A DNA stretch of 48,262 nt from an uncultured bacterium (GTDB lineage Bacteria; CSSED10-310; CAZUFC01), in NCBI GenBank assembly GCA_964619725.1, contig CAZUFC010000063.1:1-48262 (forward strand). The letters are read 5' to 3'. Both the position numbers and the translations under genes were made by a program. The notes below the pieces were generated by a model. That model was not told the DNA's origin. It saw only the letters and a list, made by a program, of their open reading frames with translations, and did no database searches. Shown here one piece after another: positions 1 to 15,700 of this stretch. Within the stretch, counting starts at the first letter, position 1; each line of letters begins with the position of its first letter.

Positions 1-113
1 TCAGGTGGTAAACTTATTTCCAGAATCGCCGGCAACTTTCACCGGAATACGCACTCCACCATTACTCCCATTGAATTCAAAATATTTATTCCGCTTCTCT
101 CGCAAATTTTCCC

Positions 114-142
114 TTGCTTTAATATCGCATTTGTATTATAAG
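114..142 (+). promoter_or_regulatory. Candidate sigma70-type promoter for the BMC/deoC/comE operon
   Basis: TTGCTT (114-119), 17-nt spacer, TATAAG (137-142), about 145 nt upstream of the first ATG. Imperfect consensus match only. Confidence 0.35.
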
Positions 143-288
143 TGTTTTGTTTGAAGCCGACTGACGAACACCTTAGTTCCGGACGACGGCTGGTTGATAT
201 CGAGAATGGCGTTGAGCAATAACGTTCACGGATAACATTGTTTTCACAATGATATTCAAAAAATTCGAAAGGTGGTGAAATTCACAGA

Positions 289-573
289 ATGGAAGCTCTG
301 GGAATGATTGAAACAAAAGGACTTATTGGTTTAATTGAATCTTCTGATGCAATGGTCAAAGCAGCAAAAGTGGTTCTTGTCGGGTATGAAAAAATCGGCG
401 GAGGATATGTCACGGCGTTGGTCCGAGGGGACGTCGCAGCGTGTAAGGCGGCAACGGATGCAGGAGCGGCGGCAGCCCAGAAGGTCGGCGAATTAGTGTC
501 TGTGCATGTAATTCCTAGACCTCATGTGAGCCTGGACGATATTTTCCCCATTAAATTGAAAGAACAGGAATAA
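289..573 (+). CDS. Bacterial microcompartment shell hexamer (BMC-H, EutM/PduA/CcmK family)
   Basis: 94 aa with hallmark motifs [34 protein letters not shown]. Confidence 0.97.
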
Positions 574-665
574 TCGGCACATAATCTAAAACGCTTTTTC
601 AATGTCATATCGTTGAAAAAGCGGATTTTGCTTTAACGAAATTTTGCTGTAATGAATTTGATACT

Positions 666-1562
666 ATGAACGAACATGATTTACCCAAAGACCAACTGGT
701 TGAGATTATTACAAAGATTACCAGGCAAGTGCTGCAACAGTATGGTTCGACTTTAAACGATGCTTCTGAGATTATTGTGGAGCCTTGCGATTGCAGCGGC
801 GTCGACCTGTCTGAGTGTACGAGTTGCGGATTGTGCATTGTTCGTCGGAATGACGTAAAGGAAGTATTGGATTCCGGTGCGGACCGGCTTGGCGCTAAAC
901 CGGGCATTAAAGACATTGACGGGTCATTAGGGTCCTATATTGATCACACTTTGTTGAAGCCCGATTCCACTGAAAAGGACCTGAAAACTTTATGCGACGA
1001 AGCCTTGAAGTACCGTTTTGCGGCTGTCTGCGTGAATCCGGCGAACGTGAATTATTGTGTTGAACGGTTGAAAGGATCGCCGATTAAGGTCGCCGCTGTC
1101 GTCGGTTTTCCCCTGGGAGCTACGACTACGTCCATAAAAGCGGCTGAAACACGCGAAGCCGTATTGAACGGAGCAAAAGAAATCGACATGGTCATAAATA
1201 TAGGGGCGCTGAAAAACGGGGATTACCAGACTGTATACGAGGATATTAAATCCGTGGTAAATGCGGCCGGAGGCAATGTGGTCAAGGTTATTCTGGAAAC
1301 GGCTCTTTTGGACGAAGAGGGCAAAATAGCAGGTTGCGTTTTATCGAAAGCAGCCGGCGCTCATTACGTTAAAACTTCGACCGGTTTCGGGCCGGGCGGT
1401 GCGACCACTGACGATGTTGTTCTCATGAGAAGAATTGTCGGCCCATCAATGGGGGTCAAAGCATCGGGAGGCATAAGAGATCAGAAGACAGCTCAGAATA
1501 TGTTGAAAGCCGGGGCCACTCGCATCGGAGCCAGCGCTTCGGTAGCCATTGTACAAAGTTAA
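666..1562 (+). CDS. deoC: Deoxyribose-phosphate aldolase with N-terminal extension (putative encapsulation peptide plus Cys-rich segment)
   Basis: IDHTLLKP, VGFPLGA, EIDMVINIG, VKVILET, VKTSTGF (Schiff-base Lys), GVKASGGIR, GATRIGAS. About 85 extra N-terminal residues. Confidence 0.96.
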   Translation: MNEHDLPKDQLVEIITKITRQVLQQYGSTLNDASEIIVEPCDCSGVDLSECTSCGLCIVRRNDVKEVLDSGADRLGAKPGIKDIDGSLGSYIDHTLLKPDSTEKDLKTLCDEALKYRFAAVCVNPANVNYCVERLKGSPIKVAAVVGFPLGATTTSIKAAETREAVLNGAKEIDMVINIGALKNGDYQTVYEDIKSVVNAAGGNVVKVILETALLDEEGKIAGCVLSKAAGAHYVKTSTGFGPGGATTDDVVLMRRIVGPSMGVKASGGIRDQKTAQNMLKAGATRIGASASVAIVQS

Positions 1563-1589
1563 TAAATCATCATTAGAACCGGGCCTGAC

Positions 1590-2894
1590 GTGGATACATA
1601 TGATATCATCTTAAAAAAAAGAGACGGCGGGAACCTGTCTGCTGGAGAATTGGATTTTATGATTAAAGGCATCGTTTCCAGCCGCATACCGGATTATCAG
1701 ATAGCCGCCTTTCTGATGGCCGTTTTCATTCGCGGAATGTCAAGGCAGGAAACGATTGATTTGACGTGCTCTATGATGAAATCAGGCGAAGAGATTATCC
1801 CGGATGAATTGGGTCCCGTTACTGCGGATAAGCATAGTACCGGCGGCGTAGGAGACAAAGTCAGCATTCCGCTGGCGCCGTTGGTCGCGTCAGCCGGCGT
1901 ACGAGTGCCTATGATGTCCGGAAGAGGACTGGGGCACACGGGCGGAACGCTCGACAAGCTGGAATCCATTCCAGGATTTTCCTGCATAATGAACAAAAGA
2001 AAATTCATCGAGGCAATGGAAACCGTCGGAGCTGCCATTATCGGCCAAACCGAAAAACTCGTGCCCGCCGACAAAAAGCTTTACGCTTTAAGAGACGTCA
2101 CAGCCACTATCGATTCCATTCCCCTGATCGCCGCCAGTATCATGAGCAAAAAAATTGCAGCGGGTCCCAGGGCAATCGTTTTCGACGTTAAAATAGGCTC
2201 CGGGTCTTTTTTGAAGTATCCTGGCAAGGCGGCCGAATTAGCTGAACTGATGATCGATATTGGTTCTGGGCTTAACAGGAATGTCAGCGCATATATTACT
2301 CAAATGGATCAACCTCTGGGCCGTTGCGTAGGTAATGCTCTCGAAATTAAAGAGTCGATCCTGTTCCTGAAAGGCGAAGGCCCGGAAGATTTAAAGGAAA
2401 TCGTATTTAAACTTGGCGCTGAGATGCTTCTTCTGTCCGGAAAATCAAGCGATTTGAATAGCGCTGAAAAAATTCTCGACGAATGCCTCGCTTCCGGACA
2501 AGCCCTTCAGAAATTTCAGGAAATGATTCAGAACCAGGGCGGCGACACCTCGGTTATAGATGATGCCGGTAAACTGCCTTCCGCTGAAAAGGTCACAATA
2601 CTGGAATCTCCTGAATCCGGTTATATTGAAAAATGCGATGCTCTACAAATCGGACGAACGGGCGTGTCGTTGGGGGCCGGCAGAGAGAGGATGGACTCAG
2701 TTGTCGATCCATCTGTCGGATTCGTTTTAAACGCCAAAAAATACGATTATATCGAGAAGGGCGAACCGTTGTTGGAAATTCACCACTCCGCCGATTTGCC
2801 TGAAAGTTTTTTCTCTCGACTGAGAAGCGCTTACAGCTTTTCTGAGGTCGAACCGACAAAAGAACCTCTCATCATTAAAAGAATAGCCGGCTGA
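1590..2894 (+). CDS. pdp: Pyrimidine-nucleoside/thymidine phosphorylase
   Basis: IILKKRDG, PDYQIAAFLMA, DKHSTGGVGDK, SGRGLGHTGGTLDKLESIPG, ADKKLYALRDVTAT, SIMSKK. GTG start. Confidence 0.96.
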   Translation: MDTYDIILKKRDGGNLSAGELDFMIKGIVSSRIPDYQIAAFLMAVFIRGMSRQETIDLTCSMMKSGEEIIPDELGPVTADKHSTGGVGDKVSIPLAPLVASAGVRVPMMSGRGLGHTGGTLDKLESIPGFSCIMNKRKFIEAMETVGAAIIGQTEKLVPADKKLYALRDVTATIDSIPLIAASIMSKKIAAGPRAIVFDVKIGSGSFLKYPGKAAELAELMIDIGSGLNRNVSAYITQMDQPLGRCVGNALEIKESILFLKGEGPEDLKEIVFKLGAEMLLLSGKSSDLNSAEKILDECLASGQALQKFQEMIQNQGGDTSVIDDAGKLPSAEKVTILESPESGYIEKCDALQIGRTGVSLGAGRERMDSVVDPSVGFVLNAKKYDYIEKGEPLLEIHHSADLPESFFSRLRSAYSFSEVEPTKEPLIIKRIAG

Positions 2895-2896
2895 AA

Positions 2897-3148
2897 ATGA
2901 AAGAAAAACACCTCCTTATTCTTATTCTTATCGCTTTTGCGGGCGGCGCTCTCGTATTATTGGTGAACGAAAACTATCGAATTGAAAAAAATCTCATGGG
3001 AAATTCTGATTATTGCCCGGATATTGAAATTTCAGAAGAAGAAGTAAAGGAAGAATCGGAAAGAAGAAATCGTTCTTCAGAGAGCGAAAATTATGAAGAG
3101 ACGATTGACGATACCGATGAAGACAACCCAAATTTGAGATATTATTGA
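2897..3148 (+). CDS. Small protein with N-terminal transmembrane/signal helix and acidic tail; function unknown
   Basis: Fills the pdp-comEC gap (2-nt and 15-nt spacers). Hydrophobic LLILILIAFAGGALVLLV followed by an E/D-rich tail. Confidence 0.7.
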   Translation: MKEKHLLILILIAFAGGALVLLVNENYRIEKNLMGNSDYCPDIEISEEEVKEESERRNRSSESENYEETIDDTDEDNPNLRYY

Positions 3149-3163
3149 TTTTGTTTACCCGCA

Positions 3164-6007
3164 ATGATTAAAGCGGTTCAAATTCTAACGCCTGCGTTCA
3201 TAGCCGGGATACTTGTTGCCCGTTTCACCGATATCCCGGAGTTATCGCTGATTCCTGTTTTTTTCGTTAGCGCATTTTTTCTATTGATGTCGCTGATCTT
3301 CTATTTAAAGGGAAAAAGTTATCAGTTTTTCCTGATCTTCCCTGCTTTTCTCGGCGGCGCATACAACCTGCAATATCACATGGCGACTGATGTCCCGGGC
3401 CACCTCGCCTTATACCTTGAAGAGAGCTCCTTTAAGAAAAACACGGCTGCGGTCGGCACCATCACGGCAGAACCCGAAATACGGGAAAGATACACGCTGC
3501 TTGAGCTGACGCCTGAATACATTAAAAAAAATTATCAGGACAGCAAAATTCTCATCAGTCGTGGAAAAATAGCGGTACGCATTTATCCGAGCATCGGTGA
3601 TTTATTCTATCAGTTGTCTTATGGCGATAAAATATTAATTAAAGACGTCGCATTGACTCCGCCCCCGGAACCGAATAATCCCGGATTGTTTAACTATAGC
3701 GAGTATCTGTCCAACAGAAACTTTTTTTCTCAGGTCAGCATTCGAAATTCCTGGCAAATAGAAAAAATGGGCGTCGGTGATTTTAATTTTCTCGTTCGTT
3801 TTGCTCTGTCCGTTAAAAATAATATTTTACAAACTATAAAGAAGACAATGCCTTTTCCGGAATCGACGTTTCTCGGAGGAGTGCTTCTGGGGCTGAGATT
3901 CGGTTTGCCGGGAGATATCGTTGACCAGTTTCGCGCGGCCGGCGTTTCGCACGTTCTGGCCGTATCGGGTCTCCACGTAACGATCATCACGGCCCTGTTC
4001 ATGGGCATATTTTCCATGATGAAAATGCCGAAACGGGCGGCAGGACCTATAATTATTTTCTTTCTGATTATTTTTACTCTTATAACGGGTGCGCGACCCT
4101 CCACAGTCAGGGCCGCCATAATGAACAGTCTGGGCCTTATCTTATACTACATCATCGGACGCGGAATTAAATCTTCCCTGCTTTTCGCTATCTCCGCCTC
4201 CGCTCTGTTGATTCTATTGAACAATCCCCTGATTCTCGGTGAAGCTTCTTTTCTATTTTCTTTCACCGCCGTACTTTCCTTGGGACTCCTGACCAACCCC
4301 GTATCCCGCTTTATGAAAAGAAGACTCAGGTCTCCCGCCTCATTCGCTGTTTTGTTCTTTGCCGTTTACCTTATCGGCGCGTTTATTACTGACAGCCGCT
4401 TTTACTTGCATCCTCCCAATGCCTTCTGGATATTGCTCGCTCTTATACCGCTTTCCTTTTTTATACAAAAATTCACCCATATTCGTTTTACTTTTGATCA
4501 CTTGCCCTTTTGGCTTCGCTCCTTTGTTGCAGCCCAGGCCGCCATTCAACTGGGAATGGCTCCCTTGACGGCTCAATTTTTCAACCGGGTATCCGTTTCT
4601 GCGCCGATTGCCAATTTTGTCGCCATACCGCTGATAGGCGTTATCGTGCAAATCGGTCTTATAGCCGGTCTCCTGGCTTTTATCCCAGTCGTCGGAATCT
4701 ATTTAGCTCTTATTCTTAACGCCTTCAACTGGTTATGCGTTAAATTTTTTCTGGGTACGGCTGCATTCTTCTCGAACAATTTTCCCTATCCGAGGCTTAC
4801 TCCACCAGGATTGGAATTTTTCCTGATCTATTTCTTCATTCTTTTCCTCTTCATGAATAGAGAAAAAATCATTTACGGAACCAGAGAGTATTTTCCGGTG
4901 TGGAAGAAACTTCTCAAAACCAGCAGGCGCATTAGATTACAAACCGTCACAGGCTGCATCCTTCTGGCGATTATCGCCGCTTCCGGCGCGAAACTAGCGC
5001 TTTCCCAGCAGGAAGAACCGCTTCGCATTCTGTTCATTGATCCCCGATCTTTCAATGTCGGTAAAGGCAGCTCCGTCCTGGTGCAAACTCCTGCCGGAAA
5101 GTCTATCCTGATTGATGGAGCAACCAGAAGGGCTTCTTTTTACGACAGAATCGTCGATTTCGATCTCGGTGAAAGATTATTAACTCCTTTGCTTTTGAAA
5201 AAAAACATCTCTACGCTTGATCTGGTCGTTCTTACGAATCCCCTGCCGCAAAATATCGGGGGTTTGATTTCGGTTGTAAAAAATTTTAGAATTTTATTGG
5301 AGGCGGATAGTCTTCCGGTCGATGAAATTCCCGACAGAAAATTGTCCCTCGAAGACATCGCTGCTGCCGAAGACGATCCGGCGCTTGAATATTTGTCGCC
5401 CGAAGAGGTTTCAATGATGCTTGACGATTTAAATGATTATTTTGAACTCCTGGGTTATTCCGATACGCGCCGATTACGACTGACGGAAGGTATGACTTTA
5501 TACAGCGAATCCCTTGATTCTGGAAAAACGCTTACGATAGATGTCCTTAATCCCCCCGCTGATCCTGATATCCTTACAGGTATTAAAAACAGAAGCATCG
5601 TTCTCCAGATCAATTATGGTGAACTCAGCGTCCTCCTGCCAAGCAATATTAACGAAGCCGCAGAATCCAGACTCGTGGAAAAATACGGCGCTGAACTAAG
5701 AAGCCAGGTCTTGCTCGTCCCGGATAACGGAAGCCGTGATGCCAGTTCTTTGCCATTCATTAATGCCGTTTCTCCTGAAGTAGCCATATTCCAATATAAA
5801 TATGAACGATATGCCAATCGTTACTTCAAGCGCAACTGGCAAAAATACAGCGAAAAAGGCATTACATGCTTCAGAACAGATAAATCAGGCGCCGTGTCTC
5901 TATTTTCCGACGGCTCAACAATGCGTCTTGAAACTGTTTTTCAACCTTCGTTCATCAAATCAGAATCCCAAGATAGCCCAGCAAATGAATGGAACTTCGA
6001 ATTATGA
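3164..6007 (+). CDS. comEC: ComEC/Rec2 DNA-uptake channel (OB-like N domain, Competence domain, degenerate MBL domain)
   Basis: PNNPGLFNY, FRAAGVSHVLAVSGLHV, TGARPSTVRAAIM, SFLFSFTAV, many TM helices, C-terminal MBL-fold remnants (SILIDG, FRTDKSGAV). Confidence 0.93.
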   Translation: MIKAVQILTPAFIAGILVARFTDIPELSLIPVFFVSAFFLLMSLIFYLKGKSYQFFLIFPAFLGGAYNLQYHMATDVPGHLALYLEESSFKKNTAAVGTITAEPEIRERYTLLELTPEYIKKNYQDSKILISRGKIAVRIYPSIGDLFYQLSYGDKILIKDVALTPPPEPNNPGLFNYSEYLSNRNFFSQVSIRNSWQIEKMGVGDFNFLVRFALSVKNNILQTIKKTMPFPESTFLGGVLLGLRFGLPGDIVDQFRAAGVSHVLAVSGLHVTIITALFMGIFSMMKMPKRAAGPIIIFFLIIFTLITGARPSTVRAAIMNSLGLILYYIIGRGIKSSLLFAISASALLILLNNPLILGEASFLFSFTAVLSLGLLTNPVSRFMKRRLRSPASFAVLFFAVYLIGAFITDSRFYLHPPNAFWILLALIPLSFFIQKFTHIRFTFDHLPFWLRSFVAAQAAIQLGMAPLTAQFFNRVSVSAPIANFVAIPLIGVIVQIGLIAGLLAFIPVVGIYLALILNAFNWLCVKFFLGTAAFFSNNFPYPRLTPPGLEFFLIYFFILFLFMNREKIIYGTREYFPVWKKLLKTSRRIRLQTVTGCILLAIIAASGAKLALSQQEEPLRILFIDPRSFNVGKGSSVLVQTPAGKSILIDGATRRASFYDRIVDFDLGERLLTPLLLKKNISTLDLVVLTNPLPQNIGGLISVVKNFRILLEADSLPVDEIPDRKLSLEDIAAAEDDPALEYLSPEEVSMMLDDLNDYFELLGYSDTRRLRLTEGMTLYSESLDSGKTLTIDVLNPPADPDILTGIKNRSIVLQINYGELSVLLPSNINEAAESRLVEKYGAELRSQVLLVPDNGSRDASSLPFINAVSPEVAIFQYKYERYANRYFKRNWQKYSEKGITCFRTDKSGAVSLFSDGSTMRLETVFQPSFIKSESQDSPANEWNFEL

Positions 6008-6720
6008 AATTCAAAGTCCAGCACCTGTTTCTGTTATTTATTTCTCTAGTCGGCTTCTTTACGGGTCTGTGGTTTTTAATTCAGCAAAGCGTAGTTGAAA
6101 CAGTCGTCGTAGTTCATGCCGTTGGTCCAGATTTCGATGAAATTTCGTTGGATTATCCCTGGGGGACCCCTCCTCCCTCTACCGCAGAACCCGCATACAC
6201 GCCCTTAACGAAATTGTCGAATGAAGAGCTGGAGGAATTTCGAGAAAAATTCAAAATAAACGTTAACGAGGGTTCTGCCGAAGAGTTAATGAAATTGAAA
6301 GGAGTCGGACCTGCTACAGCGGCTGACATCATTGAATACAGACGAACGAAAGGTCCCTTCAGAAGCATCCGGGATTTAGCGAAAGTCAAAGGCATTGGGG
6401 CAAAAACGCTGGCTAAATTCGCAGACGACATAACTGTCGGACACCCTGAAGACATTACTTTTCCGCAACCCGATGAAAGAAAAAAATCATCGAGGAGCAC
6501 GGCAAGCGGCAGCGTTTCCGTCACGGAAAAAATTAATATAAATACAGCCGGTTCGGCTGAACTGCAAAAATTACCTCGTGTAGGACCCAAGACAGCAGAA
6601 AAGATAATTCAATACAGAGAAGAAAACGGGCCGTTCCTTCGAAAAGAGGACATAAAGAAAATCAAAGGAATCGGTCCTAAAACATTCGAAAACATGAAAG
6701 AGATCATAGAGGTGGATTAG
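6004..6720 (+). CDS. comEA: ComEA-family DNA receptor, membrane-anchored, two tandem helix-hairpin-helix domains
   Basis: KINVN...LKGVGPATA..IIEYR...GPF...KVKGIG and KININTA...LPRVGPKTAEKIIQYR...GPF...IKGIGPKT. Start placed at 6004 (ATGA overlap with the comEC stop); the ORF track starts at 5989. Confidence 0.92.
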   Translation: MKFKVQHLFLLFISLVGFFTGLWFLIQQSVVETVVVVHAVGPDFDEISLDYPWGTPPPSTAEPAYTPLTKLSNEELEEFREKFKINVNEGSAEELMKLKGVGPATAADIIEYRRTKGPFRSIRDLAKVKGIGAKTLAKFADDITVGHPEDITFPQPDERKKSSRSTASGSVSVTEKININTAGSAELQKLPRVGPKTAEKIIQYREENGPFLRKEDIKKIKGIGPKTFENMKEIIEVD

Positions 6721-6830
6721 AGTTTTTTTCAAACAAAAAGATCATCCAATTATGTTGATTTTTCTTGATGAAAAAAGTCCGTTTATTTTCGATCATCAAG
6801 AGAATCTCCGATTGAAAAGGAGAAACGACA

Positions 6831-7817
6831 ATGAATGAAAATAAAAATTACCCTGTGGTCGAGGACCCGGGTTTCTTTTCTAAAAGCCTTATCCCTGTGT
6901 TGATTTTCTTTATCGCTGCTGTGATTTTGTTCGGCTTATCTTTTCTCAGGGGAGATGAAAATCCGTCAACAGCAGCGGCGGACGAAATCATAGAGACAGA
7001 GAAATCGACTGAACAGTCCCGTATGATCGTGAATTTTCTCGATATAGGAGAAGGAGACAGCATACTGATCCAAAGTCCAAGCGGGAAAAACATTCTCATA
7101 GACGGGGGAATGGGCTCGTCGGAATATTCTCACTTCGATGCGGGGGAAAATGTTATAGTTCCCATGCTTCACAATCGGAATATAGAAGTTCTTGACATTG
7201 TAATCTCCACGCACCAGCATTTCGATCATATCGGAGGATTGATAAGCGTTCTTCGTTCCTTTCCCGTAAAAAAGTATATTGACAACAAATTTGCTTTTGG
7301 AACTGAAAGTTACGCTGAACTTTTACAGATAGTAAAAGAGAAAAATATCCCCTATGAGAAAGGAGTCGCGGGAGATATTATAGATATTGACCCGAATATA
7401 TGGATCCAAATTCTTCACCCAGTCGAAGACAGTTATTTCAAAGGGACGCGTTCCGATGCCAACAACAACTCAATCGTCATGAAACTCATCTATCACAAAA
7501 TAGATTTCCTTTTGACCGGCGACGTTGAAACCGTCGCTGAGCAGACTCTACTGGAATACGGTCAAGCATTGAAAAGCTTCTTTTTAAAAGTCCCGCATCA
7601 TGGCTCGGAAACGTCTACTTCATCTCTTTTTCTCAAGACAGTCGATCCGAAAGTAGCCATTATTCCTTCAGGAGAAGGAAATCGTCACGGCCATCCAGAT
7701 TCGGTAGTCGTTAACCGTTTGCGGGATTACGGCGTGAAAATTTACAGAACCGACTATCACGGAACCATCTCGGTCATAACCGACGGATTCGGTTATAAAA
7801 TAATTACGGAAAAATGA
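6831..7817 (+). CDS. Stand-alone ComEC-like metallo-beta-lactamase-fold hydrolase (putative nuclease) with N-terminal TM anchor
   Basis: FLDIGEGDS, ILIDGG, STHQHFDHIGG, NNNSIV, LLTGD, KVPHHGS, NRHGHP, YRTDYHGTI. AGGAG RBS upstream. Confidence 0.9.
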   Translation: MNENKNYPVVEDPGFFSKSLIPVLIFFIAAVILFGLSFLRGDENPSTAAADEIIETEKSTEQSRMIVNFLDIGEGDSILIQSPSGKNILIDGGMGSSEYSHFDAGENVIVPMLHNRNIEVLDIVISTHQHFDHIGGLISVLRSFPVKKYIDNKFAFGTESYAELLQIVKEKNIPYEKGVAGDIIDIDPNIWIQILHPVEDSYFKGTRSDANNNSIVMKLIYHKIDFLLTGDVETVAEQTLLEYGQALKSFFLKVPHHGSETSTSSLFLKTVDPKVAIIPSGEGNRHGHPDSVVVNRLRDYGVKIYRTDYHGTISVITDGFGYKIITEK

Positions 7818-9118
7818 TTTTTCTTCCTTATGTTCTCAGCATATCCGCCGTCGTCTTCCTCATTAACTTTTACTTTATGGTTCAATACCTGCGAACCAGG
7901 ACAGACGACGCTGATGTAAAATCTGCTTCCAATCTCTCCTCCATCAGCGGCTTGCCCTATTTACCCGAAGAGTCATCAGATACTGACGAACCTGAAACTT
8001 CTCCATATGCCTTTCAGGAAAATCAGAAAACAACCGTCATTTCTCAACCGACCGAAAAACATCTGGATTTAATGCCTGTCAATGAAGGAGAAAAGGACTT
8101 AATCGTCACTCATTCGGACTTTGACGGATTCATTTCCGGCGCTTTATTACAAAGAAAACTCGGCAAAAAAGCGGAAATTTCCTTCAGTTCCCCATTGAGA
8201 ATCGGAAAAGACCTGACTAAATCATCGCTCCAGCTTCCTTTCTATAATCGAATATTCGTCGCCGACATTAGACTGAATCCTTCGTTTGAAAAAGAGGTCG
8301 AACTTTTTTTGAAAAATGCCGCCAATAATAACGTTTCTGTGTTTTGGTACGATCATCACATCTGGGCGGCTTCATCCTTTTCGATCCTCAAAAGTCACTG
8401 TGAGGATTGCATTGTAGATACTAATTTTAAAACGGCTGCCGAAATTATCCAGCGCCGTTTGTTTCAAAAGGATGAATATTCTGAACGGCTGATTCATTTT
8501 ATAAAGGGTAAAACAATTAAATCCGATCCCGATTGGGACGAGGATATACGCTTCTTGTTGTCGGAATTGCAAACGCGTCTTCCCGTTGAAATGAAACAAG
8601 GCGTCATATCAAAACTGGCTTTCAACGAACCCCTTGAGACAGCCGAAAAGCGTTTAATCAAAAATGGACGCAAGAGAAGCATTTTCACCGAAAGGATAGC
8701 CCGAAAAAAACACCTGACTGTAATCACTCACAGAAAAAGGAAATTCATCATCATTGATTTAAGAACATTCCGCTATGAACAAACTGAGTCTGGACAGAGG
8801 CTGTACGTCATTGAAAAGAAAAAACCGGAATCCGTCGTCGGAATGAAAGCATGTCGAGAACATGATGCTGACTTCGCTCTGATTCTCTGGTCAAATGAAC
8901 GATTTTCACTCTACCAGGGAATCGATAAATCGGTAGACTTTTCTCAGCTTTTCGGCATTCAAAAATTCGCAAAGTATCCGGTTAAGATCAGAGGGCATTC
9001 CTATGCTGCAGGCGGAGAAATTTCAATAAATTTTATAACTAAGGTAAGATTAATTTTTAATTGGAGCCTTCCAAGTGAAATTCTTGCGCTGATCGATGGA
9101 TTAAAAGAAAATTTTTAA
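7814..9118 (+). CDS. DHH-family phosphoesterase-like protein with N-terminal membrane anchor
   Basis: THSDFDG, VADI, WYDHH and C-terminal RGHSYAAGG (DHHA1-like). ATGA overlap with the upstream gene. Confidence 0.75.
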   Translation: MIFLPYVLSISAVVFLINFYFMVQYLRTRTDDADVKSASNLSSISGLPYLPEESSDTDEPETSPYAFQENQKTTVISQPTEKHLDLMPVNEGEKDLIVTHSDFDGFISGALLQRKLGKKAEISFSSPLRIGKDLTKSSLQLPFYNRIFVADIRLNPSFEKEVELFLKNAANNNVSVFWYDHHIWAASSFSILKSHCEDCIVDTNFKTAAEIIQRRLFQKDEYSERLIHFIKGKTIKSDPDWDEDIRFLLSELQTRLPVEMKQGVISKLAFNEPLETAEKRLIKNGRKRSIFTERIARKKHLTVITHRKRKFIIIDLRTFRYEQTESGQRLYVIEKKKPESVVGMKACREHDADFALILWSNERFSLYQGIDKSVDFSQLFGIQKFAKYPVKIRGHSYAAGGEISINFITKVRLIFNWSLPSEILALIDGLKENF

Positions 9119-9138
9119 ATTTTGCCACGGAGACGAGA

Positions 9139-9684
9139 ATGGCTTCTGATTTTGACAGAATAGAATCCGTCGTTTTTTCCGAAAAGCAGATATCCCGAAG
9201 AATCAATGAACTTGGCCGACAAATTTCGGAAGATTACAGAGATAAATTTCCTCTTCTCATCGGCATACTTAGAGGAGCTTTTATTTTTTTAGCCGATCTG
9301 GCCCGTGCAATCCACATACCATGTACTTTCGACTTCATGGCAGTGAGCAGCTACGGATCGAAGACGAAAACCTCCGGGGTCGTTCGGATTTTGAAAGACC
9401 TGAACGAGCACATCCAGGACAGACATGTCATTTTGGTAGAAGATATCATAGATACGGGATTAACCCTGGATTATTTGATCCGCATACTCAAAGCTCGACA
9501 TCCCGCCAGTCTGAAAACATGCGCATTACTTGATAAAAAAGAATGCAGAAAAGCAGATATTCAGGCCGACTATACCGGATTTACGGTACCTGATGCCTTT
9601 ATGGTGGGTTACGGTCTGGATTTGGATCAGTCATTCCGTAATTTGCCTTATGTAGGCATATACAACGAAAACGCAGACGCATAA
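9139..9684 (+). CDS. hpt: Hypoxanthine(-guanine) phosphoribosyltransferase
   Basis: ILRGAFIFLADL, VSSYG, VILVEDIIDTGLTL (PRPP-binding motif), VGYGLD, RNLPY. Confidence 0.96.
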   Translation: MASDFDRIESVVFSEKQISRRINELGRQISEDYRDKFPLLIGILRGAFIFLADLARAIHIPCTFDFMAVSSYGSKTKTSGVVRILKDLNEHIQDRHVILVEDIIDTGLTLDYLIRILKARHPASLKTCALLDKKECRKADIQADYTGFTVPDAFMVGYGLDLDQSFRNLPYVGIYNENADA

Positions 9685-9712
9685 AAAGAATGCTTAAGGA
9701 GAATGAACCCGT

Positions 9713-11437
9713 ATGAGTTTGGAGAAACGCCTTCAGGTTGCAAGAGGATTAAGAAAAGCAGACCTGGTATTAAAAAACGCTCGAATAGTGAATTTGTTCA
9801 ATTACGAATGCATACCAGGAGATGTGGCTGTTCACAAGGGCAGAGTTGCAGGAATCGGTCGCTACAACGGAGTGGAGGAAGTAGATTTACAGGATCGTTA
9901 TCTTGCTCCCGGCCTGGTAGACGGACATGTTCACGTAGAAAGCTCTCTCGTTACAATCCGGGAATTTTCTAAAGCCGTCAGTTCGCGTGGAACGACGACA
10001 TGTATAATAGACCCGCATGAAATCGCCAATGTCATGGGACTAGAGGGAATTAATTATATGCTCAAATCCAGCAAATACAATCCCGTAGACATTTTTCTCA
10101 TGTTGCCCTCATGCGTGCCCTCGACCCATATGGAAACCGCCGGCGCTGAACTAAGGGCGATTGATCTTCTGCCTCTACTCCCTAATCCCTGGGTTTTAGG
10201 AATGGGCGAAATGATGAACTATATGGGCGTAATCAATGCCGATCCGGAAGTTTTGGAGAAAATAAAGATCGCTGAATCTAAAACAGTAGACGGCCATGCT
10301 CCTTCATTATCCTCGAACAATCTCTGTGCTTATGTTTCCGTCGGCATACGTTCCGATCATGAATGCACTACTCTGGAAGAAGCACAAGAAAAATTGCGCC
10401 TGGGGATGCATGTGATGATCAGGGAAGGCTCTTCTTCAAAAAACATGGAATCCATAATACCTTTGGTGAATCGCGGCAACGCTGAAAATTTTTCCCTGGT
10501 AACGGACGACAGGAATCCCAGAGACCTTTATGAAGAAGGTCACATTGACGCGCTCCTTAGAAAATCTGTGCAGAAATGCGGACTCGAACCTTTATTGGCT
10601 CTTAGGCTTGCGTCCCTCAGCACATGTCGGTATTTCGGATTACGGGACCGCGGAGCGATCGCTCCTGGCTACCTGGCTGATATGGTTGTTTTTGAGGACC
10701 TCCAGGATTTTGCAATCAAAATGGTACTGAAAAACGGCGAAATCATCCTCCAGGACGGAAAGCTGCTGTGGAATAAACCTCAAGCTCCTTTACCCCGTCT
10801 TCGCAGCTCAGTGAACACGAAATGGCTTAAAGTATCGGACTTTGAGATACCTTCCTCAGGCGACAAAGCCCGCATTATCGGAGTAATTCCTGGTCAAATA
10901 CTGACGGATCAAATAATCGACAACCCATTGATTGAAAAAGGCAAAGTCCTCTCCGACACCGACAGGGATATTTTAAAACTGGCTGTTATTGAAAGGCATA
11001 CAGGCTCATCAAATATCGGGCTCGGACTGGTCAAAGGATTCGGATTGAAAAACGGTGCGCTGGCCGGAACAATCGCCCATGATTCTCACAACCTGGTCGC
11101 AGTGGGAACGAATGATGAAGATATTTTCAACGCAGCCGTTCAGGTCATCAAAGATCAAGGAGGGCTTGCCGTTTCGATCAATAATAAAATCGCTGCCTCG
11201 CTTCCCTTGCCTATCGCCGGGTTAATGTCGGATCGCCCCCTGGAAGAAGTCGTAAATAATGTCTTTGATCTCATGAAAATCGCTAAATCTCTGGGTTGTA
11301 ATCTTCCAGACCCCTTCATGGCCCTTTCTTTTACTTCTTTGCCCGTTATACCGTCCTTGAAATTAACCGACAAAGGATTGGTGGACGTCAACCGTTTTGA
11401 ATTCGTTGACCTCTTCTTAAAGCCTGATCAGAAATGA
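9713..11437 (+). CDS. ade: Adenine deaminase
   Basis: DGHVHVESS, DPHEIANVMG, GEMMN, DGHAP, SDHEC, IREGS, VTDD, AHDSHN. Confidence 0.95.
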   Translation: MSLEKRLQVARGLRKADLVLKNARIVNLFNYECIPGDVAVHKGRVAGIGRYNGVEEVDLQDRYLAPGLVDGHVHVESSLVTIREFSKAVSSRGTTTCIIDPHEIANVMGLEGINYMLKSSKYNPVDIFLMLPSCVPSTHMETAGAELRAIDLLPLLPNPWVLGMGEMMNYMGVINADPEVLEKIKIAESKTVDGHAPSLSSNNLCAYVSVGIRSDHECTTLEEAQEKLRLGMHVMIREGSSSKNMESIIPLVNRGNAENFSLVTDDRNPRDLYEEGHIDALLRKSVQKCGLEPLLALRLASLSTCRYFGLRDRGAIAPGYLADMVVFEDLQDFAIKMVLKNGEIILQDGKLLWNKPQAPLPRLRSSVNTKWLKVSDFEIPSSGDKARIIGVIPGQILTDQIIDNPLIEKGKVLSDTDRDILKLAVIERHTGSSNIGLGLVKGFGLKNGALAGTIAHDSHNLVAVGTNDEDIFNAAVQVIKDQGGLAVSINNKIAASLPLPIAGLMSDRPLEEVVNNVFDLMKIAKSLGCNLPDPFMALSFTSLPVIPSLKLTDKGLVDVNRFEFVDLFLKPDQK

Positions 11438-12411
11438 AGGGCTTGATCTTTAAAAATAACCGTCTGCAACTCGTCCGCAATCTTCCTCTGCCTCAACTGA
11501 AAAATGATGACGCACTCATTCATATTAAGCTCGCAGGTATTTGTAAAACCGATCAGGCTATTTACGAAGGCTATATGAACTTCGAAGGCGTTCTCGGACA
11601 CGAATTCGTAGGCGTCGTCAAGGATGCCCGCAATAAGGACTGGGTTGGAAAAAGAGTCGTCGGTGAAATAAACATCGGCTGCAATTCCTGCGAATACTGT
11701 CAAAATAACATGTCAAGACACTGCCTCTCACGCTCTACCATTGGAATACTCGACCACGACGGGTGCTTCGCCGAATTCCTGTCACTCCCTGTTCAAAACC
11801 TGCATGCCGTTCCCCCTGATCTCCCTGATGAGGCAGCAGTGTTTACTGAACCCCTGGCCGCCGCTCTTGAAATCCTGGAACAGCGCCATGTGGAACCCGA
11901 TCACAATGTACTCGTTATCGGCGACGGAAATCTCGGCTTCCTTATCGCACTCACCCTCGTTTTAACAGGCTGCAGACTCATTATTGCAGGAAAACACGAA
12001 CAAAAATTGTCCGTCTTTCGTAAATCAATTAAAAATGTTGAAATTCTCAACTCCAGCTTAAATGTAAATTTGCTCGAGGAGCTCCAAAATAGTATGGATA
12101 TTGTGGTGGAGGCTTCCGGCTCCTGTTCCGGACTCCTCTCCGCGATCAAGGCCGTAAAGCCTAGGGGCACAATAATTTTGAAAAGTACCTATAACAAAAA
12201 TTCTTCAATCGATCTCACTCCTTTTATGGTCGATGAAATTTGCCTGCTTGGTTCTCGTTGCGGACCCTTTAAACCCGCTGTTCGACTCCTGGCTGAGGGA
12301 TTAATTGATCCCATCCCCTGGATTCAAAAAATATACCCTCTTGATCAAGCTGAGAAAGCTTTTTGTGAGATGCAGGAGACAAGCTCAAAAAAAATTCTGC
12401 TCAGAATCTGA
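11434..12411 (+). CDS. Zn-dependent medium-chain dehydrogenase (alcohol/threonine dehydrogenase-like)
   Basis: AGICKTD, GHEFVG, structural Zn motif CNSCEYC...C, EPLAA, Rossmann GDGNLG. ATGA overlap with ade. Confidence 0.9.
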   Translation: MKGLIFKNNRLQLVRNLPLPQLKNDDALIHIKLAGICKTDQAIYEGYMNFEGVLGHEFVGVVKDARNKDWVGKRVVGEINIGCNSCEYCQNNMSRHCLSRSTIGILDHDGCFAEFLSLPVQNLHAVPPDLPDEAAVFTEPLAAALEILEQRHVEPDHNVLVIGDGNLGFLIALTLVLTGCRLIIAGKHEQKLSVFRKSIKNVEILNSSLNVNLLEELQNSMDIVVEASGSCSGLLSAIKAVKPRGTIILKSTYNKNSSIDLTPFMVDEICLLGSRCGPFKPAVRLLAEGLIDPIPWIQKIYPLDQAEKAFCEMQETSSKKILLRI

Positions 12412-12497
12412 TCATCAAGCTCACTATCTTTATGGCATGTCCATAAAGCCATTTTTAGACAATCTGATAAAGTTAAAACACATCTCCTCGTAATTAT

Positions 12498-12545
12498 TTG
12501 TTCCGCTTGCGACAGCGATACCGATCCCGACCCCAATACCTGAAC
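12498..12545 (+). repeat. Degenerate hexamer array (CGAYNN-like), copy 1
   Basis: ttgttc cgcttg cgacag cgatac cgatcc cgaccc caatac ctgaac. Confidence 0.5.
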
Positions 12546-12712
12546 AACCTGGTATGAATGAAAAAAAGATGGGTGATTTCGCCAGGCAGATATTTGTGGG
12601 ACATGGTAAGTTTCTTATGAGGATTTCAATCAGTCAAAATTTCTATGAAAAAGTGTAACCCCAGATCGATCAGTCCCGAAAAAAGCGTGTTACCTTTGGA
12701 CATATAATTCAA

Positions 12713-12758
12713 AGCAGCATATGACTTTAAGACTTAATCCTTCAAATCATATGCTGCT
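12713..12758 (-). terminator. Stem-loop, probable terminator of the 12786-15950 gene (possibly bidirectional)
   Basis: AGCAGCATATGA (12713-12724) and TCATATGCTGCT (12747-12758) form a perfect 12-bp inverted repeat between convergent genes. The U-tract is short. Confidence 0.6.
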
Positions 12759-12785
12759 CAAAAAACTAAAACAGCTTACTCGTTT

Positions 12786-15700
12786 TTATTTCTTTTTTTG
12801 AATCAACTTTGAATCCGCGCTTTTTCCACCGCCGGCGCTCGGGTGTTGCGACCTGAATTGATGCTGAACAACCGCTAAATCCCTGATGGGTCCGTAAAAC
12901 GGACAGTAGATGCTGTCATGCTCCTTCATTGAAATCATGAATTGCTTATCTTTATCAGTATCTCCCAGATAAATCGTTGATTTGTACCGCATCTGGTCCG
13001 GGTGGAAATCACAATGCACTCCTGAAACCGACGCCCCATGCCCTCCTATAAGATCATAGGGTATTTCTCCGTCCAGCAAGTTCATCTCTCCTAACTCGAA
13101 ACAATTCAAATCCATATTGTTTTCCAGTTGTTGCTGCAATACTATCCTTCCATCGTAACAGTAAAAAGCGTAGAAATTTTGTTCCGGAGGGAAGGAACCT
13201 TGATCTGACTCCGTTAAAACGAAAACGTCGTAAAGCGGGTCTTCAATAGGAGAGTAAAATGTTGCTGCTTCAATGTCTATCACCGGTTGCGAAACGATCT
13301 GATGATGAACCTCAAGCGGAGGCAACATATGCAATTTGTAATTTTCAAGGAAGCGGATATTAAAATTGGTTCCGAGTATGAAGTCATGAACAAAATTCGA
13401 TGCAAACAGGTTCGCTGAGCAGATTTTGGTGATCCGTTCTCCTTCTCGCCATCCGTGAAGGGTCCTTAAATTGATCATTGCGTTTTTCAAGAGTTGAAAG
13501 AATTTTTTTCCTTGCCTTTCAGGATCGGAAAGAAAAATTCTCAAATCAGTCGCTTCCCTGGGGTCTAAGTTGGGGTCCGGCGTCAACGCGGTCACGAGGT
13601 CTTCAAAAGCATCGACCTTATCGGAAGGATAATAATTCCCTACCTCCAAATCTACTAAACGATGGTCCTTTACATTGAAACTGTATTCTTCCAGGATGGA
13701 ACCCATGACGAATTCAGGAGGTGAACCGATTCTGTCCTGAATATCATAGGTAATAATCGAACATTCATAGACTGATTGATCGAGCGGATTCATTCCGACT
13801 ATGATTTCATTTCTTTTGTCATTGTCAACGTCACCTGTCGATATCGCAACGATATGAGCCGGGAGCATTTTCTGAGGATTCATCGGATCCTCTATCCTGG
13901 AAGGAACGAGAACAGCCCTTTTCAATTTCTCGGAATGATTGCATACGTAGTTTAAGCCTTCTCCTCCGGGTTCGGGAAATTTGCTGTCGAAAAGAAATAG
14001 GTTATGTTTATCGTCTGGAAATCCATAAACGCCTGATAGGGCATCAGTAGCTACGATAACGTCCAGCCTGTTGTCTTCGTCTCCTTTTAAATCTTCAACC
14101 GTAATAGAAACCACTTTACCGGAAATGGCAGGCGAATTGACCGGGTTACCCTGCGGCGTATCCGACAACAGGAGTCGTCCCCTTCTAACCCATTTTCCGT
14201 CTTCTTCAGGATCAGGATTGAAAAAGAAATTGTTGACGTAAAACACTCTCACGTCGGAAGAACCAGTCAAATTATTGTCGCTTCCCACGACCACTTCAGC
14301 AATAAACTCATATGGGAAAACGGTGGGGGTCGGAGTAGGCGTGGGCGTAAATGTAGGAGTGGGGGACAAGGTAGGCGTTGCTGTTGCAGTCGGAGTATCA
14401 GTCGGTGAAGGAGTATGAGTGGGAGTCAAAGTCGGCGTTTTTGTGGGCGTGGCTGTCGCTGTCGGCGGTTCAGGAGTGTAGGTGGGAGGGACAGGCGTCC
14501 ACGTGGGCAACTCCCAGTTCCCGTAATAAATCGTCGGCCAATCGAATGGCCCCAAATTTAACTCCACCTCAAGTCCAGTCGTACAATCCCATCCCGGATA
14601 CAGTTCTTCATAAAGGTAATAAATTCCTGTCGGAATCCCACTGAATGTTATCTGCCCGTTTTCCGTCGCGCCGCTGTTGAAAATCCCGCCTACATCCGTA
14701 TACATCGTAAACCACCAGTCATCCATCAAGGACTCACCTTCATCATACTCAGCATCTCCGTCCAAATCGTGAAACTTGTAAACCGTTACAGCAGGCAGTT
14801 TAATGTTACCAAACTCGACGACTTGTGATTGCGCCGGAGATAAATCAACTTCTCTGGATATCCCGTTCGTCGGCGACCAACCCGGAACTTCCTCTTCATA
14901 TACAGTATAAAACGATGCAGGCAGGTCACTGAAAACCGCATTCCCGTTGCTGTTGGTCAGCTTTTCCTGTATCAGTATGTCGCCTTCATACAGGAACATC
15001 TTCCATCCTTCTCTGCTGGGTTCGCCGTCCTGTTGGACTCCGTCGATATTATAATCGAGAAATTTATGAGCTACGATTGTCCCGCCTGCAAGCCACTCCG
15101 CAACTGCTTCGCAAAAAACAGAACCAGTTACCGGCTCCGCTAAAACCAATAACTGCTTCGGAGGTTCTACCGGTTCAAATCTCACTCCTTGAGGAAGTAA
15201 AAAATCAGCGCTCGCCTCGATATTTGCATCCGACGGTTCACCCGTATCATTCGTCAGAGTGAAATATCCTTCACCGTACTCGTTCGTCACTACTGACGGA
15301 GTATCCAGTATTCCAAAATCCGTCGTCAGGTCAACGGTCAAACCCTCAACCGGGTTACCGTCCTGAGTCGCCGTCACCGTAAACTCTACAACCGTATCCG
15401 GAAGCGTCACAGCTCCATAGGCAGGCGCTATCTCTAAATTCGGCGGGTCCTGAGGCAATATGCAGGGACTCGGCACTGAGTCAATAATATCAGCGGCACG
15501 ATTAGCAACATCCAAGGGTCCGCTTACTACAAATCCGTCCGAAAAATTCCAGATGGCCGCTTGTCGCGCAGCAGCCTCCACATTCGTCAAGCCCGGCTCC
15601 GGCGGATACTCGTTTAAAATATAAGTGATTTGACAAAACGTCGGTCCGTCGCTCACAAAAGTATCACCCACCTTGATCGTATTATTCAAATCAATGCAAA

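Follow-up and report, generated by a model that had tools for sequence, protein, structure and literature searches.

A candidate DNA-feeding gene cluster built around a divergent ComEC paralogue in the bacterial phylum CSSED10-310

Introduction

Whether bacteria take up DNA as food or for the genes it carries is a question decades old, which has so far been approached mostly through physiology in a few model species. The locus described here raises it again. It lies at the start of contig CAZUFC010000063.1 (C63 below) of assembly GCA_964619725.1, an uncultured bacterium of the phylum CSSED10-310, whose genome comprises 9.17 Mb in 344 contigs and is 90.9% complete and 6.5% contaminated. In the first 48 kb of this contig (48,262 nucleotides, referred to throughout as the window, base 1 being the contig edge), eleven genes follow one another between positions 289 and 12411, among them homologues of the DNA-uptake proteins ComEC and ComEA, candidate nucleases, enzymes of nucleoside and deoxyribose-phosphate breakdown, and a shell protein of bacterial microcompartments (BMCs). 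The original prediction was that they form one transcription unit for DNA capture, hydrolysis, base salvage and compartmentalised sugar catabolism, so that competence would here be nutritional rather than recombinational.

From comparisons of sequence and gene order, we conclude that the cluster is probably a DNA-import apparatus serving catabolism and salvage, separate from the canonical transformation pair of the same genome. The nutritional reading receives strong comparative support, while three parts of the prediction, concerning the nature of the comEC gene, the role of the last three genes and the microcompartment link, had to be corrected.

Results

Layout of the cluster

All eleven open reading frames (ORFs) of the cluster lie on the forward strand. 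Their families, called with Pfam and NCBIfam profiles, are as follows.

289-573, forward strand: BMC-H shell protein with a single BMC domain, EutM-like (PF00936, 95.6 bits; NF012018 EutM, 159.4 bits, cut-off 133)
666-1562, forward strand: DeoC, deoxyribose-phosphate aldolase (TIGR00126, 285 bits, cut-off 117, over residues 88-297)
1590-2894, forward strand: Pdp/DeoA, pyrimidine-nucleoside (thymidine) phosphorylase (TIGR02644, 533.6 bits, cut-off 409; three Pfam domains)
2897-3148, forward strand: small protein of 83 aa with no Pfam or NCBIfam match, an N-terminal hydrophobic segment (residues 3-27) and an acidic tail
3164-6007, forward strand: ComEC2, a long ComEC paralogue of 947 aa (PF03772, 132.6 bits in two stretches, cut-off 23; PF13567, 68.5 bits, cut-off 31.6)
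5989-6720 (alternative start 6004), forward strand: ComEA-like DNA-binding protein (PF12836, 155.1 bits, two HHH_3 stretches)
6831-7817, forward strand: stand-alone hydrolase of the metallo-beta-lactamase (MBL) fold, of the type of the ComEC C-terminal domain (PF00753, 70.1 bits; aligns to TIGR00361 positions 438-663)
7814-9118, forward strand: p434, a DHH/DHHA1-fold phosphoesterase of 434 aa with a transmembrane helix, a disordered linker and catalytic domains
9139-9684, forward strand: Hpt, hypoxanthine phosphoribosyltransferase (TIGR01203, 217.8 bits, cut-off 150)
9713-11437, forward strand: Ade, adenine deaminase (TIGR01178, 639.3 bits, cut-off 472.5)
11434-12411, forward strand: zinc-dependent medium-chain dehydrogenase (PF08240, ADH_N, 71.7 bits), overlapping ade by ATGA

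The coordinates bear out the earlier description of eleven co-oriented genes with spacers of 2-110 nt, the intergenic gaps being 92, 27, 2, 15, 110, 20 and 28 nt. Three ATGA overlaps had also been described. Two are read directly in the sequence, at 7814-7817 (MBL/DHH) and 11434-11437 (ade/dehydrogenase); the third, at 6004-6007 between comEC and comEA, exists only if translation of ComEA begins at the second ATG; from the first in-frame one (5989) the overlap is 19 nt.

The cluster comEC belongs to a distinct long clade

The label comEC is justified as far as the OB/DUF4131 and Competence channel domains go, both of which the protein keeps. It is not a canonical ComEC: it scores 171.1 bits against the TIGR00361 equivalog, below the cut-off of 190.05, and its C-terminal MBL-like domain lacks the metal ligands. 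In an alignment of the window copy with 13 relatives the HVLAVSGLH block is invariant in all 14 sequences, and the canonical HxHxDH block is replaced by other residues in every one. Alignment with the stand-alone MBLs and the canonical copy shows that the C-terminal domain keeps a fold-level match, has lost its ligands and carries an insert.

When the six ligand positions were scored one by one against the MBL alignment over all fetched loci (many canonical ComECs read HxDxDH), ComECs of about 780-860 aa proved to keep them and the long proteins (821-1280 aa) did not. The HxHxDH block is absent from all 44 rows scored for the long clade, and every one of the 54 intact rows is placed on the opposite side of the tree. 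That tree, of 106 homologues, splits into two groups separated by a branch of length 0.66 with an SH-like support of 100. One holds 49 rows, 43 with dead ligands and 6 without data; the other holds 57, of which 54 are intact, 2 are without data and 1 is dead. Judged by these sequences, the cluster gene is a member of a distinct clade of long paralogues with a dead MBL domain, which we call ComEC2, and not an ordinary competence gene.

The original prediction had proposed looking for a second comEC of the transformation type, and one is present, with its own comEA. Contig C10 carries a canonical pair, in which a ComEA of 169 aa (one HHH_3) adjoins a ComEC of 783 aa with intact ligands (Competence, 190 bits; Lactamase_B, 64.8 bits, over the cut-off). 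Nine relatives also hold a canonical ComEC of about 800 aa, and the copies from this genome and the nine relatives form a group of their own on the intact side of the tree. Two diverged copies in one genome are unusual against the background of a survey of 2,373 proteomes, in which every strain except one had just one Competence-domain protein (PMC6299819). Matches to the DprA family number three in this genome (on C2, C175 and C129), an unusual count that could reflect paralogues or the 6.5% contamination.

The ComEA of the cluster has an N-terminal hydrophobic segment, read as a membrane anchor, together with its helix-hairpin-helix (HhH) modules, and reaches 151 bits against TIGR01259, just under the cut-off of 152.35. 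A complex prediction for the pseudo-MBL domain of ComEC2 with the stand-alone MBL gave a score of 0.00 and a mark of 0.32, which counts neither way.

Gene order is conserved within the phylum

Loss of gene order in relatives had been set beforehand as a result that would count against the prediction. We compared 14 genomes of the phylum, this one included, and found the order kept. Eleven of the 14 (G000, G001, G003, G004, G005, G006, G008, G009, G010, G011 and G013), which span seven family codes, share the co-oriented series DeoC, Pdp, ComEC2, ComEA (tblastn, 15 loci), and in seven genomes BMC-H stands before it. ComEC2 itself was detected in 12 genomes; the G002 contig breaks off 608 bp 5' of the gene, and G007 (86% complete) and G012 (78% complete) gave no match. 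A p434-like protein was detected in all 12 and, like ComEC2, was not found in the remaining two.

Across the 11 genomes identity to the window proteins is 30-41% for ComEC2 and 48-52% for Pdp. The stand-alone MBL comes next in nine of them (the contig of G011 ends first and G004 has another gene there), and p434 then follows in eight of those nine. The small 83-aa protein has blastp relatives at the equivalent position in five loci (L041, L045, L046, L047 and L048). Loci of different family codes have 2-7 core ORFs in common and only 0-1 flanking ORFs, the sole common flanking ORF being a cytidine/deoxycytidine deaminase. This deaminase lies directly 3' of p434 in five relatives (PF00383, 65-70 bits in the four scanned; L044 by blastp). 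In seven relatives a PD-(D/E)XK nuclease of about 550 aa stands between MBL and p434. It has no hydrophobic segment and is of the Cas4/AddB type (PF12705, 187 bits in the scanned phylum member L047). The context of nucleases and nucleoside catabolism is richer in relatives than in the window, and is extended by two further genomes described below.

Further ComEC2 loci

Scanning genome contigs with the ComEC2 alignment confirmed 582 stretches, from which 80 loci were kept. Two of these, L058 and L073, come from genomes outside the 60 relatives searched and carry on one strand Pdp, ComEC2 (1271 and 1280 aa), ComEA, an intact MBL, a p434-like protein with the same anchor, DeoB (TIGR01696, 480 and 495 bits, cut-off 341), purine-nucleoside phosphorylase (PNP; NF006054, 338 and 342 bits, cut-off 218) and a DnaQ-type DEDD exonuclease. 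Pdp adjoins ComEC2 here as it does in the 11 genomes of the phylum, and DeoC lies on other contigs. From their gene content, the two loci appear to be an independent recruitment of deo genes to ComEC2. Neither the PD-(D/E)XK nor the DEDD exonucleases of ComEC2 clusters have a hydrophobic segment.

A simpler association is found in L067 and L070 (Riflebacteria) and in L078, where ComEC2 stands with ComEA and an intact MBL.

As a separate observation, in L050 (G027), L071 and L079 a ComEC2 with a dead MBL domain is followed 4-6 kb 3' by a ComEC-like gene of about 690-706 aa, which falls on the canonical side of the tree on a long branch. The two ComECs are separated by a PD-(D/E)XK nuclease and by a stand-alone MBL that is intact in L050 and degenerate in the other two loci.

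The stand-alone MBL and p434 are candidate nucleases

The metal ligands that ComEC2 has lost are present in the separate MBL protein. All six positions (HxHxDH and the later Asp/His) are intact in 8 of 8 aligned copies, the window copy among them, and in 9 of 9 scored relatives of the phylum. The protein has a hydrophobic segment (residues 13-43), read as a membrane anchor, and its weak matches to MBL proteins of the Avs1a and 6A-MBL defence systems are all under the cut-offs. On these features we regard it as a candidate nuclease.

For p434, no Pfam or NCBIfam profile matches at default settings, the Pfam DHH family (PF01368) reaching E 0.017 with a score of 15.9 bits (cut-off 28.1). The earlier call of a DHH phosphoesterase nevertheless holds, on three grounds. 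First, DHH motifs I-IV and the DHHA1 Gly-His motif are present, with H100, D102, D104, D151, D180, H181, H182, D315, G394 and H395 at least 90% conserved or invariant over 39 sequences. Second, a search of 1.84 billion representatives gave 125 homologues at E <= 0.001 and 14 at E <= 1e-30, and among ten relatives scanned the remote ones exceed the Pfam DHH/DHHA1 cut-offs (P0026, 34.6 bits; P0029, 33.8 bits). Third, the AlphaFold2 model (pLDDT 88.3, pTM 0.80) shows two domains that follow an N-terminal helix and a disordered linker, and Foldseek matches it to 71 PDB chains at E <= 0.001, all those listed being of the DHH family; PAP phosphatase, NrnA, RecJ, RecJ-Cdc45, PggH and GdpP are among them, with E-values down to 1.9e-10. 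Motifs, transitive matches and predicted fold agree in making p434 a DHH/DHHA1 protein.

Three of the ten scanned relatives are fusions, to a UvrD helicase, to a NucS_C-like stretch and to a YhcG PD-(D/E)XK stretch with DHH. The UvrD fusion suggests that the family acts on DNA, and p434 may be considered a candidate exonuclease for single-stranded DNA. Its N-terminal segment is hydrophobic and followed by basic residues, as would suit a cytoplasmic enzyme tethered to the membrane. In G002 a p434-like domain lies within a frame of 1177 aa (G002:C30:7191-8243), and P0014 (1175 aa) is the fusion of a UvrD helicase to a p434-like domain.

The microcompartment link is modular

The DeoC of the cluster, the only deoC match in the genome, has an N-terminal extension of about 87 aa (666-926) that consists of an amphipathic helix of the encapsulation-peptide type followed by a Cys-rich linker. 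We take the N-terminal amphipathic helix of this type of DeoC to be an encapsulation peptide. This agrees with a remark in PMC8217296 that in HO-type genomes DeoC genes with encapsulation-peptide-like N-terminal extensions lie remote from the shell genes.

Presence of the extension follows that of BMC-H. Copies of BMC-H 76-91% identical to that of the window precede deoC in six relatives, which makes seven genomes with BMC-H 5' of DeoC, and all seven have further BMC-domain genes. Reading the DeoC frames, we found an extension of 70-100 aa with a conserved amphipathic helix at its start in 7 of 7. Four genomes (G006, G009, G010 and G011; 90, 92, 93 and 60% complete) keep the deo-com cluster with no PF00936 match genome-wide, and in 4 of 4 the DeoC frame starts about 15-25 residues before the catalytic core, the extension being absent. 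BMC-H and the DeoC extension are either both present or both missing. The coupling to a microcompartment put forward in the original prediction is supported by their co-variation (7/7 versus 0/4) and has to be restated as optional, because four relatives hold the cluster with no BMC gene anywhere. The pairing of a DeoC targeting helix with BMC-H points to the handling of acetaldehyde, that is, to carbon flow. The linker itself varies, being Cys-rich in this genome, G001 and G004 and shorter in G013, G005, G003 and G008.

The BMC-H of the cluster is a satellite to shell genes located elsewhere in the genome. Three BMC-P genes lie at C4:101.5-102.4 kb, with genes for a threonine-dehydrogenase-like protein and an acetate-CoA ligase as neighbours, and a PduT-like BMC-T at C4:119.3-119.8 kb beside an RnfC-like flavoprotein and an electron-transfer-flavoprotein (ETF)-quinone oxidoreductase; the two sites are 17 kb apart, with housekeeping genes between. 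Two features of sugar-phosphate-utilisation (SPU) microcompartments are found, a DeoC-family aldolase (PF01791) with a targeting extension, its encapsulation being a prediction, and an acylating aldehyde dehydrogenase (AldDh) for acetaldehyde, encoded on C48 (TIGR02518, 640.5 bits, cut-off 620.1) and ending in a C-terminal amphipathic helix. The single RpiB of the genome (PF02502) does not adjoin deoC and lies on C114 with a triose-phosphate isomerase (L139:3512-4297/4294-5262, reverse strand). RpiB has a C-terminal extension of about 120 aa that weakly matches the eut-associated TIGR02536 (36.5 bits, cut-off 152.6), and the adjoining isomerase has an N-terminal extension of about 60 aa of similar look; to judge from these extensions both may be targeted to the microcompartment.

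BMC-H and BMC-P were nowhere found joined in one main locus, the shell and enzyme genes being spread over at least four contigs (C63, two sites on C4, C48 and C114); with 344 contigs some linkage is possibly hidden. We also considered whether a main BMC locus was lost 5' of the contig start, and set this aside in view of G003, G008 and G004, in which the upstream neighbour of BMC-H is divergent, on the opposite strand.

The tail of the cluster is variable

Base salvage had been included in the predicted unit. The genes hpt, ade and dehydrogenase have no match in the 15 related loci compared above or in the further 80, save for weak dehydrogenase matches in five Poribacteria loci; their adjacency to the cluster is thus unique to this genome, and base salvage is not part of the conserved unit. 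The dehydrogenase is under the cut-off of every NCBIfam family it matches, the best being threonine dehydrogenase (125 bits against 380). What occupies the tail is always concerned with nucleoside or base metabolism: Hpt and Ade here, cytidine deaminase (Cdd) in five relatives, and DeoB, PNP and the exonuclease in L058 and L073.

Flanking sequence and regulatory signals

The remainder of the window holds housekeeping genes, among them FtsK, LolA, a TonB-dependent receptor and RpoA, and the same contig also has an apparent ribosomal-protein operon, judged by ORF sizes alone. Contamination of the assembly as the source of the cluster was considered and set aside, as the contig carries rpoA and the same cluster recurs in kin. 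As had been stated for the window, no dprA, comF, recA or pilin gene was seen; the scan covered the 21 largest ORFs and left out the smaller ones 3' of 12.4 kb. Convergent with the cluster is a gene of the reverse strand (12786-15950) for a secreted-looking protein of 1054 aa, with Ig-like and SpaA-like stretches and a Pro/Thr-rich linker and of no clear family.

Two terminator-like hairpins from a pattern scan concern the cluster.

592-623, forward strand: hairpin with a 13-pair stem and a T-rich tail, between BMC-H and deoC (weak evidence)
12428-12448: hairpin directly 3' of the dehydrogenase gene

The first is a possible attenuator that may tune the ratio of shell protein to enzyme. The scan found 12 terminator-like sites where shuffles led us to expect 14.3, that is, no excess; as promoter and terminator patterns are not above shuffles, they have no bearing on operon structure. 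An Rfam search at E <= 1 over positions 1-13000 gave no riboswitch, the RsaH and mir-15 matches being sub-threshold and at chance level.

Discussion

A proposed pathway

The picture that emerges is best explained by the use of DNA as food; gene context is what supports this reading, and we consider it fairly probable. The pathway we propose draws each of its steps from family membership and gene context. ComEA, membrane-anchored and with two HhH modules, would hold duplex DNA outside the cytoplasmic membrane. The stand-alone MBL hydrolase would degrade one strand, replacing the dead MBL domain of ComEC2, while the other strand would pass through the channel of the ComEC2 Competence domain. Instead of being handed over to DprA and RecA, it would be cut to mononucleotides by the membrane-tethered DHH-fold esterase, joined in relatives by a cytoplasmic PD-(D/E)XK nuclease or DEDD exonuclease. 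After dephosphorylation by a putative nucleotidase, Pdp would release bases and deoxyribose-1-phosphate, relatives adding cytidine deaminase or PNP at the nucleoside step. DeoB, encoded elsewhere in the genome, would make deoxyribose-5-phosphate, and DeoC, carried by its N-terminal helix into the microcompartment where shells exist, would yield glyceraldehyde-3-phosphate and acetaldehyde. The acetylating AldDh encoded on C48, with its C-terminal helix, could then convert acetaldehyde to acetyl-CoA. In this genome, Ade and Hpt would also route adenine to IMP.

A broader proposal is that ComEC2 is a previously unrecognised class of DNA importer for feeding, a long clade with a dead nuclease domain in CSSED10-310, Riflebacteria, Elusimicrobiota and PVC lineages, which where its clusters are best preserved would work with an outsourced MBL and a tethered DHH exonuclease, the strand being shredded at the channel exit and the deoxyribose burnt via DeoC, sometimes in a microcompartment. 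We would give this about an even chance.

Points that weigh against feeding

Several observations weigh against the interpretation of the cluster as a feeding system. In ComEC2 loci of some lineages outside the phylum, the stand-alone MBL is degenerate where it accompanies ComEA in L057, L059 and L064 and where it accompanies a PD-(D/E)XK nuclease in L060, L071 and L079 (L071 and L079 being Elusimicrobia), and most loci of Verrucomicrobiota and Kiritimatiellota have no ComEA, MBL or deo neighbour within the locus; the ComEC2 clade is thus not uniformly tied to catabolic genes. The tree that defines the clade was built with FastTree and midpoint-rooted, from loci picked by likeness to ComEC2, and kin within one phylum are non-independent observations. 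For the MBL and DHH proteins, topology is read from hydropathy and charge alone. The pathway has a gap, in that no 5'-nucleotidase was identified among the cluster genes and deoB is on another contig, and the PD-(D/E)XK nuclease of relatives was not found in this genome (one protein query against a 90.9% complete assembly; the family was not searched). Among public sequencing runs no RNA run contains the stretch and four DNA runs do, all from one study ("microbial mat metagenome") and one of them possibly the source, and the organisms with titled records are all uncultured. Finally, ordinary transformation also degrades and reuses imported DNA that fails to recombine, because of which adjacency alone cannot separate food from salvage after uptake.

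Alternative explanations

The alternative that survives best is that the system scavenges nucleotides, bases or phosphate rather than carbon and energy or, in a variant, that MBL and ComEA digest DNA outside the membrane, with ComEC2 letting in short products only. In favour, the window's Hpt and Ade lead from adenine to IMP, cytidine deaminase, Pdp and PNP serve salvage as much as catabolism, and four relatives keep the cluster without a microcompartment; the dead MBL domain and extra segments mark ComEC2 as an altered channel protein. DeoC fits scavenging badly, however, being a catabolic enzyme that destroys deoxyribose. Its gene heads the conserved part of the cluster in 11 genomes and is the only deoC of this one, and its targeting helix and the paired BMC-H suggest that acetaldehyde is handled and carbon flows. 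Cytoplasmic PD-(D/E)XK and DEDD exonucleases, for their part, are sensible only if polymeric DNA enters the cytoplasm. We therefore think scavenging unlikely, while granting it a share of the evidence.

Next comes the view that this is an ordinary natural-transformation locus beside deo genes, whose shared order reflects common descent in one phylum and not function. That all 11 genomes with the full order come from a single phylum is what descent would produce, and the retained OB/DUF4131 and Competence domains of ComEC2, the HhH modules of ComEA and the presence of DprA elsewhere in the genome (three matches) would all suit transformation. Descent does not account for a core that is conserved while its flanks are not, nor for a second lineage that joins ComEC2 to other deo genes (deoB, PNP). 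The transformation role would moreover seem to be filled by the separate canonical comEA-comEC pair of the same genome, and by the canonical ComEC in nine relatives, whereas ComEC2 falls in a different clade with dead MBL ligands and has nucleases and deaminases for neighbours, not DprA, ComF or RecA. This explanation we judge quite improbable.

A barrier against foreign DNA, with a ComEC-like channel coupled to nucleases and the deo genes tidying up the products, might be read from the nuclease-rich context (MBL, Cas4/AddB-type PD-(D/E)XK, DHH, DEDD), the fusion of p434-like domains to UvrD helicase and the sub-threshold resemblance of the MBL to Avs1a and 6A-MBL proteins, yet excluding DNA needs no import channel, no NCBIfam defence family is over its cut-off (PADLOC was not searched) and the recruitment of four classes of nucleoside-catabolic genes in different lineages is unexpected for defence, so that we hold it very unlikely indeed.

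What a feeding system would mean

If the broader proposal on ComEC2 is right, genomes would themselves prove nutritional competence to be a system in its own right, apart from transformation. Two ComEA/ComEC sets in one genome, one canonical and one remodelled, make the question of food versus genes directly testable side by side. The cluster would supply the missing upstream end of the DeoC-type microcompartment pathway, a source of deoxyribose phosphate, and since some relatives have shells and others do not, one phylum lets the same pathway be compared with and without a microcompartment. How the domains of ComEC divide their labour is a further question on which this clade bears, with its dead nuclease domain and its partner MBL.

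Comparison with known systems

The original prediction knew of no described operon joining comEC and comEA with BMC and deo genes, and we found none in the literature either: no paper was found that joins ComEC with microcompartments or deo genes, supplements lying outside the search, so that a satellite locus may have been drawn undiscussed. The only paper found with both "microcompartment" and "ComEC" in the text available is a Brochothrix transcriptome (PMC6856214). A genome announcement on the phylum mentions none of these features, and a study of Antarctic-lake metagenome-assembled genomes predicts BMCs "used for DNA degradation" in Auribacterota, without uptake genes.

The closest relatives of the import module are the ComEA/ComEC transformation machineries, such as that of Bacillus subtilis. 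They have in common with the cluster a ComEC of OB/DUF4131 and Competence domains with an MBL-fold C-terminus, an anchored HhH ComEA, and adjacent overlapping genes. The cluster differs in that the MBL domain of ComEC2 has no metal ligands and an intact MBL is encoded by a separate gene. It also differs in that ComEC2 has 947 aa against 783 aa in the canonical copy, is a second copy and has nucleases and deo genes for neighbours. The nuclease activity of ComEC is treated in PMC8579336 and PMC12455585.

The use of DNA as a nutrient through homologues of competence genes is what Palchevskiy and Finkel reportedly described in 2006 for Escherichia coli. There, too, competence-type uptake proteins are proposed to serve nutrition. 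The E. coli com homologues are scattered and are not known to be linked to deo genes or a microcompartment, whereas here genes for uptake, nucleases, nucleoside cleavage and aldolase form one conserved cluster around a dedicated ComEC paralogue.

The enterobacterial deo operon has the order deoC-deoA-deoB-deoD. The cluster resembles it in having deoC and a deoA-type phosphorylase adjacent and co-oriented, and L058 and L073 do so in their clustered deoA-type, deoB and PNP genes. It differs in being interrupted by, or built around, a module for DNA import and degradation, and no nucleoside transporter is seen in the cluster. The full set (deoC, deoA, deoB, deoD) is not in the window, which has deoC and pdp only; deoB is on contig C6.

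With RecJ, NrnA and PAP phosphatase, p434 shares the two-domain DHH/DHHA1 fold and the DHH motifs. It differs from them in falling below the Pfam cut-off, in its N-terminal membrane anchor and disordered linker, and in belonging to a rare family.

Microcompartments of the SPU and HO types that contain DeoC have been proposed to burn the products of DNA breakdown (Sutter et al. 2021, PMC8217296; PMC11585597, a 2024 paper on SPU), and the word "competence" is absent from the main texts of both papers. Common to them and to this genome are the signature DeoC with a targeting-type extension, a BMC-P triplet and an acetylating AldDh, with the RpiB encoded on C114 as a possible further partner; here the shell and enzyme genes are dispersed, unlike those of SPU BMCs. 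The parts of the cluster belong to known families; what is new is how they are combined, together with a ComEC paralogue dedicated to the cluster and a microcompartment link that is modular.

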